DNA of 63,387 nucleotides, taken from positions 1 to 63,387 of the IMG/VR virus record IMGVR_UViG_3300037558_002241. The stretch is one strand, 5' to 3'. The notes under the pieces were generated by a model, which was given only the letters and a program-made list of their open reading frames with translations, had not been told where the DNA came from and did not search any database. Positions 19,683 through 27,385 of this stretch are shown here, in pieces. This DNA is from a virus (taxonomy: Duplodnaviria; Caudoviricetes). Within the stretch, counting starts at the first letter, position 1, and the number at the start of each line of letters is the position of its first letter. A program made the translations under genes and the position numbers.

Positions 19683-19704
19683 CTTTGTATGTGAGGTTTT
19701 CCTC

Positions 19705-19832
19705 ACCACATTGTTCGTCGCCTCACCGAGACTAAACAGCGACAATAAAAAACAGTCTCTAATACCTGTTACTGAGGGTGTAACAGGAATATCTTACCAG
19801 TGTTCCCCGCACTTATATCTAACCCTTTTCAA
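19705..19832 (+). ncRNA. PhotoRC-II-like structured RNA leader of psbA
   Basis: GTCGC/GCGAC stem, GAGACT/AGTCTC pseudoknot pairing, CCTGTTAC/GTAACAGG hairpin with GAGGG loop, AGTG/CACT hairpin with CCCC loop; directly 5' of a cyanophage psbA; boundaries approximate. Confidence 0.75.
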
Positions 19833-25176: not shown

Positions 25177-25632
25177 ATGGCTACAACAAAACTTCCTAAC
25201 AACCCTTTGGTCTCTGAACTGTTCAAAGCAGTGCACGGTGCTAAGACTGTGGATAAGAAGGTTGAGATCTTGGAATCTCATAAGCGGGATGACGTAAAGG
25301 CAATCCTTATTTGGAACTTCGATAAGAAGATTCAAAGTGCTATTCCTGCTGGACCTGTACCTTACAAGGTAAATGATACTCCTGCTAATGCAGTGGGTCA
25401 CACTCGTTTAGTACAAGAGTGGAGGACACTGTATAACTTTATCCGTGGTGGTAACGATAGACTATCTCAGATGAAGCGTGAGATCATGATGGTTCAACTG
25501 CTAGAGACTCTTCATGCTGACGAGGCAGAGATTGTTGTCCTCGCTAAAGATGGTGAACTACAGAACAAGTATCGCATCACTCGTAGCGTCGTAGAGAAAG
25601 CGTACCCTGAGATCGTTTGGCGTGACAAGTGA
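25177..25632 (+). CDS. T4-like cyanophage hypothetical protein
   Basis: 151 aa; LIWNFD, P.G.VPY, LYNFI.GG, LE.LH..EA. Confidence 0.8.
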   Translation: MATTKLPNNPLVSELFKAVHGAKTVDKKVEILESHKRDDVKAILIWNFDKKIQSAIPAGPVPYKVNDTPANAVGHTRLVQEWRTLYNFIRGGNDRLSQMKREIMMVQLLETLHADEAEIVVLAKDGELQNKYRITRSVVEKAYPEIVWRDK

Positions 25633-26741
25633 AGTTCCTCATTGATCTAACAGATCATTGTAACTCCAAGTGTCCTTTGTGTGCTAGACATAAGACATCA
25701 TATAATGATGAGGTAGCGGTACTAAAACCGGACCCATCAATGAATCGTTCTTCCATTAGTCTTGAGCAATGGAAGGAGTGGTTCCCACCAGAGACCCTTA
25801 GGAAGACAGAGTTGATGTACTTCCAAGGGTCTTTTGGTGAACCTACATTGTGTGAAGATCTGTTAGAAATATATTCCTACACTCTAAATGTGAATAGGAA
25901 TATCATCTTCCAGATGAGTACTAATGGAGGCACCCGAGACCAAGAGTTCTGGGGTAAACTTGGTGCCCTCATGGGAGCATCGCATAAAGATTCTTTTCTT
26001 ATCTTTTCTATTGATGGTCTAGAAGATACCATACAACAATACAGGGTAGGTGTAGACTACAATAAAGTAATCAGTAGTGCTAAGGCATTCATTGCCGCTG
26101 GTGGACCTGCTGTGTGGAGGATGCTAGTCTTCAAACATAATGAGCATCAAACTAAGCGTTGCAAGACACTCAGTCGGTTGATGAAGTTCAAAGACTTTCA
26201 ACACACGAAGGTCAATGATATGTATGATGCTAGTGGGAAGGGAGATGGTACTTTTACTTACGAATACAAAGGCACAGTCAGAAAACTAGAGGTAGTTTCT
26301 GATTCTGCACATGTATTCAAAAACAATCCTGTCGCTGAGGATAGTCCTGTTGACTGTAGATACAAGCATCAGCGGGGTAAACCAGGTCAACTTAGGATTG
26401 ATAGTCGTGGTGTAGTTCATGCTTGCTGCTTCCACCAGTCACGTCTGAGGTTCTTCTACCCAGAGTTCTATGTTCATGATGACATTGATGCTCCAGCAGA
26501 GTTTAGGGACATCAAGAACCCAAACAAGGGGGTGGGTGCTGAGTATATGCAGAAGGTATTCTGGGACAATGTTATCCCATTGATTGAAGACCAGGGTGGT
26601 ATCAAATCTATATGCTTACAACATCATAGTCTTGAGGAGATATTACAGACTCCATTTTTCCAGCATACTCTTGTGGACTCTTGGGATAAGAGACCACATA
26701 TCTGTGCAGATTACTGTGGCACTAAGCGGTGCAGCAGTTGA
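25629..26741 (+). CDS. Radical SAM protein with C-terminal SPASM/twitch-like cysteines
   Basis: CNSKCPLC, GEPT, STNG, FSIDG, VFKHNEHQ, HACC, CADYC. Confidence 0.88.
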   Translation: MKFLIDLTDHCNSKCPLCARHKTSYNDEVAVLKPDPSMNRSSISLEQWKEWFPPETLRKTELMYFQGSFGEPTLCEDLLEIYSYTLNVNRNIIFQMSTNGGTRDQEFWGKLGALMGASHKDSFLIFSIDGLEDTIQQYRVGVDYNKVISSAKAFIAAGGPAVWRMLVFKHNEHQTKRCKTLSRLMKFKDFQHTKVNDMYDASGKGDGTFTYEYKGTVRKLEVVSDSAHVFKNNPVAEDSPVDCRYKHQRGKPGQLRIDSRGVVHACCFHQSRLRFFYPEFYVHDDIDAPAEFRDIKNPNKGVGAEYMQKVFWDNVIPLIEDQGGIKSICLQHHSLEEILQTPFFQHTLVDSWDKRPHICADYCGTKRCSS

Positions 26742-26767
26742 CTGACCTACATAATATATGGTATAAT
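26738..26767 (+). promoter_or_regulatory. Sigma70-type promoter of the riboswitch locus
   Basis: TTGACT, 18 bp, TG-extended TATAAT; inferred start site just 5' of aptamer 1. Confidence 0.65.
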
Positions 26768-26772
26768 TACCA

Positions 26773-27002
26773 TACGTTCATCTCACAGTGGTGTGAGACG
26801 CAAGTAAGTCGCGGAACGGAGCCGTTCATCCCATGTTTGAATTTCTTTTATATACATCACTCACTTGTCAACAAGCCGAAGGAATTATCCTGAGGATGCA
26901 AGCATCCGAGTATATCGAAAGTGCTTTCAAAGTTGAACTTGTGGAGACCGTAAAGGAATCTACACCTGAGTGTTATTGGGACGCAAACGACTAAAGGAAC
27001 GG
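26773..27002 (+). ncRNA. Tandem glutamine riboswitch-like aptamers (glnA/Downstream-peptide class)
   Basis: Two units of CGTTCA-P2-GACGCAA...GGAACG upstream of a DUF4278-like ORF; aptamer 1 at 26775-26818, aptamer 2 at 26822-27002. Confidence 0.8.
26833..26994 (+). CDS. 53-aa hypothetical protein encoded inside the second riboswitch aptamer
   Basis: Manual translation MFEFLLYTSLTCQQAEGIILRMQASEYIESAFKVELVETVKESTPECYWDAND; GGAG at 26818-26821. Confidence 0.7.
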   Translation: MFEFLLYTSLTCQQAEGIILRMQASEYIESAFKVELVETVKESTPECYWDAND

Positions 27003-27036
27003 ACCTAAAAATCCAACTACTTTAGGAGTAAGACTG

Positions 27037-27180
27037 ATGAGTACCATCACTTATCGCGGCGTCAAGTATGACGCTGAAAGCTACAAGGCAAAGGTTCTTG
27101 AAGAGCGAGACCAACGCCACAACCATGACCTCATGTATAGAGGTATCAAGGTTGAGCGTAAGTTCGCTTCCAAATCCTGA
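27037..27180 (+). CDS. DUF4278-like 'downstream peptide' (47 aa)
   Basis: MSTITYRGVKYD...LMYRGIKV with two YRG motifs; AGGAG ribosome-binding site; follows the riboswitch. Confidence 0.85.
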   Translation: MSTITYRGVKYDAESYKAKVLEERDQRHNHDLMYRGIKVERKFASKS

Positions 27181-27188
27181 CAACCAAT

Positions 27189-27216
27189 AGAGAGGTCTTG
27201 ACACCTCTCTTTTTTT
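27189..27216 (+). terminator. Rho-independent terminator
   Basis: AGAGAGGT-cttgac-ACCTCTCT followed by a T run. Confidence 0.8.
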
Positions 27217-27232
27217 ATCTTATGTTATACGT

Positions 27233-27385
27233 ATGGAACGAGACAAACTAAAAATTATTATCTCCGACCTAGAGATGCTACTGAGTGCTTTGAAAGCAGA
27301 AGTGTACTCTGATGTGGAGTCGTATCGCTTTGATGAATGCGACCCTGTTGAACTTGACTACGACGAAACATACGAAGGTCCATGA
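27233..27385 (+). CDS. Small acidic hypothetical protein (50 aa)
   Basis: Manual translation MERDKLKIIISDLEMLLSALKAEVYSDVESY...; ATGA overlap with thyX. Confidence 0.75.
   Translation: MERDKLKIIISDLEMLLSALKAEVYSDVESYRFDECDPVELDYDETYEGP

Follow-up and report, generated by a model that had tools for sequence, protein, structure and literature searches.

A candidate nested double glutamine aptamer enclosing a protein-coding gene in T4-like cyanophages

We analysed the virus record IMGVR_UViG_3300037558_002241, a stretch of 63,387 nt (hereafter the window, taken at its full length) that comes from a T4-like cyanomyovirus, and examined the short unit at 26738-27217, which is probably a stand-alone early phage operon whose mRNA opens with a nested double glutamine aptamer. 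All features given below lie on the + strand. The unit begins with a sigma-70-type early promoter (26738-26767: TTGACT at 26738-26743, an 18-nt spacer, and TATAAT at 26762-26767), which scores 11/12 in our promoter scan and has a TG preceding the -10 box; most relatives have their -35 and -10 boxes in matching positions (94 of the 123 distinct upstream regions contain both), and the transcript should start at about 26774, right at the aptamer. Two glutamine-type cores follow, wrapped around an inner open reading frame (ORF) of 53 codons (26833-26994), and then a 47-codon gene of the DUF4278 family (27037-27180, with its ATG at 27037; IF17-like, IF17 being the cyanobacterial factor that inactivates glutamine synthetase). 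The unit closes with an intrinsic terminator (27189-27217), in which the terminator scan finds an 8-bp stem with a 6-nt loop (stem-loop at 27189-27210) and a T-run. The preliminary description of this locus had proposed such a complete unit from promoter to terminator, and every sequence element that it listed is present at the positions it gave.

The leader RNA was parsed, on the nested fold, into an outer aptamer, alpha (26775-26811 and 26988-27002), and an inner one, beta (26813-26833 and 26977-26992). By its sequence, alpha is a predicted Glutamine-I-type three-way junction. Its P1 pairs CGUUC (26775-26779; 26775-26780 with the A that follows) with GAACG (26997-27001) within GGAACGG (26996-27002), and directly 3′ of CGUUCA stands the P2 hairpin (26781-26798; 7 bp, UCUCACA/UGUGAGA, loop GUGG). 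The linking strand CGC comes next and runs into AAGUA (26799-26806; as a whole ACGCAAGTA), and its C26801 forms the long-range pair with G27002, as in Glutamine-I. AAGUA (26802-26806) and AAA (26993-26995) flank P3 in the Glutamine-I order, and a loop-E is predicted from the letters of its two halves, AGUA (26803-26806) and AAA (26993-26995; GAA in loci whose inner ORF has a UGA stop). P3 itself pairs AGUCG (strand a, 26807-26811) with CGACU (strand b, 26988-26992), and it is closed not by a loop but by the second aptamer: in the predicted fold, beta, which is circularly permuted, sits on the far end of this 5-bp helix of alpha and uses the same helix from the other side. The P1 of beta is closed as a hairpin (26813-26827), in which GGAACGG (26813-26819) is joined through the loop AGC to CGUUC (26823-26827) and pairs with it by GAACG (26814-26818); this linker is 2-4 nt long throughout the parsed loci. 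The 5′ strand of beta P2, UCCCA (26829-26833, the last letter being the A of the inner ATG), pairs with UGGGA (26977-26981), which continues into CGC (26982-26984, C26984 being the long-range base) and AAA (the whole, 26977-26987, codes for W-D-A-N), and U26992 of P3 is the first base of the inner stop codon. The two glutamine-type cores of the preliminary description are thus both there, with CGUUC, a CGC strand and GGAACGG in each.

Sequence matches place the same architecture in 425 phage records (342 named Synechococcus, 65 Cyanophage, and 14 Prochlorococcus), and the region is most closely matched in phages of Synechococcus and Prochlorococcus; eight GenBank phages from at least six genera share this layout, with the inner ORF annotated as a gene ("gp197", T4-like gene cluster 430). 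For the comparison, a pattern modelled on the first core, in which the six positions around AGTCGC could take any letter, gave at least 120 viral contigs, which together with the eight GenBank phages and the window make 129 loci; two variant patterns (one with 16 matches, 5 of them unrelated DNA, the other with 22 matches, 12 of them unrelated DNA) added 21 elements, for a total of 143 parsed instances, 130 of them distinct. Compact forms account for 30 of the 143 instances (21 distinct), and have a short hairpin (e.g., CGUUCAUCCC-UCCG-GGGACGCAAACGACUGAAGGAACG) in place of the ORF; since a plain hairpin occupies the position of the ORF there, the two ends of the ORF correspond to the two strands of an ordinary aptamer stem. 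We built two alignments, A1 with 14 compact sequences and A2 with 80 ORF-type sequences. Over the whole structure, A2 has 99.2% of 1760 cells paired and 7 pairs with changes on both strands; the observed value was not equalled in any of 500 shuffles, and pairing in slid controls drops to 29-49%. In A1, 98.8% of 415 cells are paired, and 12 pairs have such two-sided changes. Since the shuffles take no account of how the sequences are related, these figures are indicative values and not probabilities. The recurrence in 425 records and the covariation together indicate that the layout is more than chance. We also searched 185,579 prokaryote species genomes (one each), which gave 33 pattern matches, with the tandem layout in six, all metagenome-derived or draft assemblies; two of the contigs with this layout measure about 190 kb, as a cyanomyovirus genome does, and these are probably phage DNA in bins and not host copies, so the element in its present form looks phage-specific.

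The covariation across homologs that the preliminary description had proposed as a check is seen in three helices plus one long-range pair. The alpha P2 differs in sequence among relatives with its pairing kept, and in A1 four of its six pairs are changed on both sides. For P3, the 129 loci contain AGUCG/CGACU in 108, AGUCA always with UGACU (4/4), AAUCG always with CGAUU (2/2), and G-U variants in 5 (the second half is not matched by the pattern in the remaining 10 of 129); AGUCA/UGACU is the form in L088, L151, L155, and L158 (our labels for individual loci), and a further change, AGUCU/AGACU, is found in seven compact loci. P3 is paired in 100% of the cells of A2, and these compensatory changes bear out the earlier proposal that neither core has a P3 of its own and that AGUCG/CGACU is a helix common to both. 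The beta P2 has 4 of its 5 pairs changed on both sides, with 96.8% of cells paired in A2; its variants include UCCU/AGGA, UCCUCAU/AUGAGGA, and CCCCA/UGGGG, and L063 has a wholly different 7-bp stem, GAUUAUG/CAUAAUC. The long-range pair of beta, G26819-C26984, covaries as well (GC in 77, CG in 2, other in 1 of the 80 relatives in A2), and the letters at 26977-26987 are found also in compact loci without the ORF.

The P1 strands never vary in A1 or A2 (the first CGUUC and its A are invariant in 14/14 and 80/80) and are identical in both copies, so both registers pair at 100%. The preliminary description had chosen the local partners, giving two interlocked side-by-side aptamers, and this part is not borne out by the long-range pair, which covaries across the cores. 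In the Glutamine-II structure as described (PMC6698751), the CGC linking strand lies in the groove of the CGUUC/GGAACG helix and its last C pairs with the G after GGAACG; Glutamine-I has an equivalent pair. The window itself is uninformative here, since CGC and GGAACGG occur in the two cores alike. A first linking strand of CGG, together with a C after the last GGAACG (so that C26801:G27002 is replaced by G:C), is found in 11 compact loci, all of which keep the inner pair as C:G; in 10 other loci (seven compact, three with the ORF), it is the second linking strand that reads CGG, and the C follows the first GGAACG. With the nested partners, both pairs are Watson-Crick in 14/14 sequences of A1 (CG 8 plus GC 6 for one, GC 14 for the other) and in 80/80 and 79/80 of A2; the local partners give G.G and C.C, unpaired in 6/14 for each pair in A1 and in 2 and 3 of 80 in A2. 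The pairs L061 and L130, and L034 and L158, are close relatives that differ by the swap alone, i.e., true double substitutions. Since the long-range pair covaries across the cores, the outer aptamer takes the first CGUUC and the last GGAACGG, and the inner one the GGAACGG and CGUUC that lie between them. We infer that it is the first CGUUC, and not the second, that pairs with the last GGAACG, because hairpin, linking strand, and 5′ strand are contiguous in the solved structures. The Rfam Glutamine model points the same way, matching at its gathering score in the outer register only (38.4-43.6 bits in 5 of 7 compact loci), where it takes the first CGUUC and the last GGAACG, uses AGU/ACU as P3, and leaves an insert of 38-48 nt. 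The two loop-E halves, AGUA and GAA/AAA, both adjoin one and the same end of the common helix.

We consider it improbable that the leader instead forms two side-by-side aptamers with local P1s (26775-79/26814-18 and 26823-27/26997-27001) and a pseudoknotted AGUCG/CGACU, which would amount to two Glutamine-II-type pseudoknots sharing one P2. The identity of the P1 strands allows it, CGC and GGAACGG give both cores a long-range pair of the Glutamine-II form, the first core can close its local P1 ahead of the rest as the RNA is transcribed, and the Rfam Glutamine-II model finds marginal local matches in two of the seven compact loci, at 35.7 and 34.0 bits (gathering 33). Enforced folds of 26775-27045 come out at -64.3 kcal/mol for the nested form and -63.8 kcal/mol for the local one without P3, energies that cannot separate the two because the pseudoknot is not scorable. 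However, the local arrangement leaves G.G and C.C in both swapped sub-families, in which the nested partners remain Watson-Crick; AGUA and GAA/AAA stand together at one end of P3, as in the loop-E of Glutamine-I, an order that makes sense with the outer P1 alone, and the Rfam Glutamine-I score is higher in the outer register. Nor do the cores behave as independent tandem units, as P3 is common to both and the long-range pairs cross between the repeats.

The nested fold could also be read with one ligand site, the outer aptamer alone sensing glutamine and the inner core serving as a decoy or competitor that offers CGUUC and GGAACGG, with strand exchange between the registers. The identical P1 strands make a register exchange energetically neutral; in addition, the inner core has no loop-E and minimal junctions, and its long-range pair is broken in L083 and L088. 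We regard this as quite unlikely, since the CGC of the inner core and its long-range partner are conserved and covarying (the GC 77, CG 2, other 1 given above) and the inner P2 covaries, conservation that is expected of a folded ligand-binding core but not of a mere competitor strand.

The inner gene, taken from the ORF list, runs over 53 codons and ends with TAA at 26992-26994 (MFEFLLYTSLTC...ECYWDAND); its product matches phrog_504 (E 3.4e-27). Of the 116 ORF-type loci, 112 keep the frame from an ATG that overlaps or adjoins the 5′ strand of the stem through to a T[A/G]A, which is made up of the final U of CGACU and the two nucleotides after it. The proteins fall into very different sub-families of 51-66 residues and end in DAND or DAHD throughout. 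Among the 44 distinct 53-codon versions, the mean pairwise difference at codon positions 1/2/3 is 0.42/0.19/0.57, a pattern that indicates protein coding; for the five final codons plus the stop it is 0.06/0.11/0.00, with third positions that never vary, which indicates RNA constraint at the 3′ end. Between L034 and L158, the long-range swap turns the protein from WDAHD to WDGND, so here the RNA overrides the codon. The ribosome site of the inner ORF is GGAG (26818-26821), in and beside the loop of beta P1; of 111 distinct ORF-type loci, 104 have it, and in 102 of these it precedes the ATG by 10-11 nt, while it is missing from all 19 distinct compact loci. AlphaFold2 predicted three short helices for the inner protein (70 homologues, mean pLDDT 80.8), and two cysteines are invariant among the homologues; the protein has no Pfam family, and a Foldseek search against PDB returned 0 matches at E <= 0.001. 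Judged from the comparison, the inner ORF is a real, conserved protein-coding gene for what the model presents as a three-helix microprotein, and the arrangement first described for it (a protein gene in the P2 loop of one core, with its start in the stem, GGAG just 5′, and its stop in the junction) holds.

The outer P2 can also be long. In 30 of 129 loci (e.g., L013, L018, L021, L025, L033, and L035), its strands are 197-232 nt apart, and, in those loci that were read through, the long stem encloses a further ORF of about 62-70 codons (e.g., MLALLLAFTLAHH...CERFLQRR...GYLKSKVEG.C...), with an N-terminus that resembles a signal peptide and with two cysteines. This ORF ends either in AAGUAA or within the 3′ side of the stem, and its AUG is paired with letters beside its own stop (UCUCAUG/CAUGAGA, UCUUAUG/CAUAAGA); thus some phages appear, from their sequences, to carry a gene in both sensor stems. 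In L082 and L122, an insertion of 60-95 nt between GGAACGGAG and the second CGTTCA falls in the 2-4 nt linker that is the loop of the inner P1, and displaces GGAG far from the inner start codon; it is bounded by near-perfect inverted repeats (ATTAGAATGATT ... AATCACTCTAAT) and resembles a miniature inverted-repeat element or an extra hairpin.

These observations bear on whether the inner ORF is a mere passenger of the fold, the P2 loops being insertion-tolerant slots behind a strong early promoter for exchanged small genes, with no meaningful coupling of glutamine and translation. The compact forms (30/143) do without an ORF, very different ORF families of 51-66 aa occupy the one slot, the outer P2 is also ORF-bearing in 30/129 loci, all four combinations of a short or long outer P2 with a compact or ORF-bearing inner P2 are seen among the 143 instances, and the linker of L082 and L122 has taken up the inverted-repeat insertion. 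Set against this are the AUG in or beside the 5′ strand of the stem and the stop in the conserved core (112/116 loci), the last codons fixed by the RNA (invariant third positions, and Ala to Gly when the long-range pair swaps), and the GGAG at 10-11 nt from the AUG, seen only where the ORF is present. With so tight an overlap of start and stop, interference between folding and translation would be hard to avoid, and we find a pure passenger rather unlikely; where that view is possible, it applies to the regulatory coupling and not to the overlap itself.

Downstream of the nested aptamer, the product of the DUF4278 gene (27037-27177 without the stop codon) matches phrog_5049 (E 5.6e-24) and, marginally, PF14105 (25.7 bits against a cut-off of 25.3, E 1.5e-5), the latter confirming, at this margin, the DUF4278-like assignment that had been made from the translation. 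Its ribosome site is AGGAG (27024-27028), the first two bases of which lie in a switch helix identified by covariation, CUAAAG (26991-26996) with CUUUAG (27020-27025). The 5′ strand of this helix, CU[R]AAG, comprises the final CU of P3, both purines of the inner stop codon, a further A, and the first G of GGAACGG, and its partner, [C/U]UU[Y]AG, ends inside the ribosome site. All 480 of 480 cells are paired in the 80 relatives, with the middle pair GC in 36, AU in 31, and GU in 13; among 120 distinct loci, R/Y is G/C in 56, A/U in 41, G/U in 23, and A/C in 0. Thus whether the inner gene stops at UAA or at UGA varies together with a base at the DUF4278 ribosome site. Folded at minimum energy (-68.3 kcal/mol), 26775-27045 contains the switch helix, and the enforced nested aptamer is 4 kcal/mol dearer. 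The switch helix encloses a small hairpin, GGA (27001-27003) with UCC (27012-27014), which starts at the final G of GGAACG, includes the G of the long-range pair, and is found in 81 of 84 distinct tails (single-sequence folds, which are weaker evidence). By their positions, switch helix and small hairpin are predicted to compete with the outer P3, the loop-E, P1, and the long-range pair. This is the single ribosome-site switch helix that we found downstream. The preliminary description had instead suggested a masking hairpin of CCTAAA (27004-27009) and TTTAGG (27021-27026); both strands are present in the window, but across the 80 relatives they are paired in only 67.7% of cells (a rough count, the alignment being gappy there), no better than shuffles, and as a conserved mask we rejected it, the 5′ strand being missing in loci such as L011, L058, and L075 and in all CUUCAGG types.

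Two variations of this region were observed among the relatives. A sister family (L130, L132, L133, and L135-L142) has compact nested aptamers before a longer DUF4278-like gene (MSIATYRGCKYNTD...), and CUCUUUAA directly 3′ of its GGAACG is complementary to UUAAGGAG, which is the arrangement proposed for Synechocystis gifB. In addition, a conserved insertion of about 40 nt (AAACGGAUCC-variable hairpin-GAGAAGGUUAA) is found between the last GGAACGG and the downstream ribosome site in L004, L013, L016, L039, L047, L056, L060, L069, L074, L094, L099, L103, L106, L107, L113, and L118; a search with the copy of L016 matched no Rfam family.

The helices, the nested topology, the protein-coding ORF, and the alternative 6-bp switch helix are established by comparison of the relatives; what they do can be proposed by analogy. 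The ligand-contacting nucleotides of the Glutamine-II structure as reported (CGUUC, CGC strand, and GGAACGG; PMC6698751) are present in both cores, and because these core nucleotides are identical to those of solved structures, both cores would be expected to bind glutamine. For Synechocystis gifB, it is reported that glutamine raises IF17 synthesis, and pairing of the 3′-end sequence of the aptamer with the ribosome site has been proposed (PMC6212724). By analogy with gifB/IF17, without glutamine the switch helix and the GGA/UCC hairpin would hold the 3′ core of alpha and hide the ribosome site of the DUF4278 gene, and with glutamine alpha would fold and free that site, an ON switch. The same folding would hinder initiation on the inner gene by burying its GGAG in the loop of beta P1 and its AUG in beta P2, so that the two microproteins would be controlled in opposite directions; a ribosome traversing the inner gene would open beta P2, P3, and the 3′ core of alpha, and also the switch helix. 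At its fullest, this would be a bidirectional gate, in which high glutamine shuts the stem-held genes and opens the IF17-like gene, low glutamine does the reverse, passing ribosomes reset the RNA, and the P2 loops are exchangeable slots for microproteins; we offer the gate tentatively, as possible but doubtful.

Several points weigh against the nested, two-site, glutamine-responsive leader as a whole. All alignments are anchored on the invariant motifs that served as search patterns, so the sample is biased to conserved cores. P1 being invariant, its partners follow from the adjacent long-range pair and the solved structures and not from P1 covariation, and the long-range swaps stem from two or three lineages, that is, few independent events. 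L083 and L088 have CGA, not CGC, as their inner linking strand, which gives an A.G mismatch; the strict inner pair is therefore not universal, and the inner cores of these two loci may be degenerate. Beta is without the AGUA/GAA loop-E and its junctions are very short (AAA and C), so it might not bind ligand, and a stem of 4-5 bp that closes 143 nt is weak on its own. On the expression side, the switch helix covers the first two bases of AGGAG alone, the sister family has a different anti-ribosome-site sequence, and the CCUAAA/UUUAGG hairpin can still form in folds of the window when the aptamer is enforced, so the ON direction is not certain here. Ligand binding and both regulatory directions are what we infer.

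The element falls below standard detection thresholds. In the riboswitch region, Rfam has 0 matches at gathering score; a permissive search finds the first core alone, with 24.7 bits for RF01739 (gathering 35; local register only) and 23.6 bits for RF01704 (gathering 33), the 176-nt insert exceeding what the RF01739 model aligns. Standard scans miss the element, which implies that counts of phage riboswitches are underestimates. A pattern search found no second element of this kind elsewhere in the window, whose sole Rfam match at threshold is a PhotoRC-II RNA at 19704-19800 (58 bits; L017 also carries one). A search of marine metatranscriptome runs gave small shares only (<=0.16), and four runs were mapped. 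Logan contigs of relatives cover 26774-27030, one is identical over 26891-27030, and some include promoter letters 5′; such contigs are uninformative on transcript start, end, and strand, and so have no bearing on transcription start, termination, or expression level.

Just upstream of the unit, a 370-aa radical-SAM protein is encoded at 25629-26741 (PF04055 at 33.2 bits, with a weak SPASM match), and its gene ends inside the -35 box of the operon. An NtcA-type box, GTA-N8-[T/A]AC (e.g., GTATCACATGTTAC), is found just 5′ of the promoter in 71 of 123 distinct relatives (e.g., L001, L013, and L017); it is not present at 26700-26737 of the window, where the radical-SAM gene extends into the promoter. 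At the other end, a second promoter-like site (27198-27226; TTGACA, 17 nt, TATGTT) overlaps the terminator, and 3′ of it lies a 50-codon ORF (27233-27385) that matches phrog_878.

Aptamers are usually seen as compact and non-coding, and those in tandem as beads on a string; the element departs from both views. Whole protein genes stand within aptamer stems, and their start and stop codons double as structural nucleotides; two cores, one in circularly permuted order, appear to interleave their halves around one helix, a connectivity that we found for no riboswitch class in the literature searched. The layout suggests that T4-like cyanophages sense host glutamine to time an IF17-like peptide and microproteins; timing by glutamine, if so, would bear on phage control of nitrogen metabolism in the most abundant marine phototrophs, and the bidirectional gate, if true, would let the phage read host nitrogen status and translational capacity on one molecule. 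The compact form, at about 90 nt, is a ready target for structure determination.

Among known systems, the tandem glycine riboswitch also couples two homologous aptamers to one platform. Its aptamers lie side by side and are docked via tertiary contacts. The present element is similar in that two homologous aptamers for the same amino acid are physically coupled on one platform, but the glycine aptamers share no helix end to end, are neither nested nor permuted, and have no ORF.

The likeness to Glutamine-II (the Downstream-peptide motif, RF01704; Huang 2019, PMC6698751) is in the CGC strand, the GGAACGG, and the C:G long-range pair as described there, and in the single-nucleotide link between helix strand and GGAACGG in the inner core (G26811-C26812-G26813). 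According to the same paper, the Glutamine-II aptamer can be built from two RNA pieces and was crystallised as a strand-exchanged dimer, so this fold tolerates swapped connectivity. Unlike Glutamine-II, neither GGAACGG here is followed locally by a strand that pairs with the helix, i.e., the H-type pseudoknot is not found, and the scores are under or barely over threshold (23.6 against 33 bits in the window).

With Glutamine-I (RF01739; e.g., the Synechocystis gifB/IF17 leader as described by Klahn 2018, PMC6212724), the element shares P1 CGUUC/GAACG, the P2 hairpin, the linking strand with its long-range pair, the AAGUA...GAA around P3, the order of the three-way junction, and a DUF4278 gene downstream, and the Rfam model scores above gathering on compact relatives in the outer register. 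The switch proposed here is at the ribosome site, similar to gifB, for which a pairing between ribosome site and 3′-end sequence of the aptamer, lasting until glutamine is bound, has been put forward (PMC6212724); and the 47-aa phage DUF4278 protein is short, like the picocyanobacterial IF17 homologues, which according to that paper are without the C-terminal residues required for the interaction with glutamine synthetase in Synechocystis. The differences are that P3 here is not a closed hairpin but carries a second complete core, that the long-range pair is C:G here and G:C there, and that the element is below the Rfam threshold (24.7 against 35 bits), has a protein gene within a stem, and has a phage host.

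Glutamine riboswitches in cyanophages are on record (PMC9964418, Table 4), and the 99-nt RF01739 match at 44 bits given there looks like a compact relative in the outer register. Tandem ("pseudo-cooperative") glutamine riboswitches, of which Sherlock et al. 2022 (PMC9481103) counted 157 doublets and which were also noted by Weinberg 2010 (PMC2864571), likewise have two glutamine cores per leader, and the 157 doublets may include compact relatives of the present element. In the literature searched (Ames & Breaker 2011 and supplements lay outside the search), glutamine riboswitches with two cores are described only as "tandem", with no nested or permuted glutamine aptamer, shared helix, or ORF inside one. 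As these sources describe them, the tandem riboswitches are independent serial units under multiple expression platforms, whereas the element of the cyanophages has a common helix, nesting, one platform, and genes in its stems, and from its sequence is best described as a putative new structural variant of the glutamine riboswitch with an unusual overlap of coding and structure.

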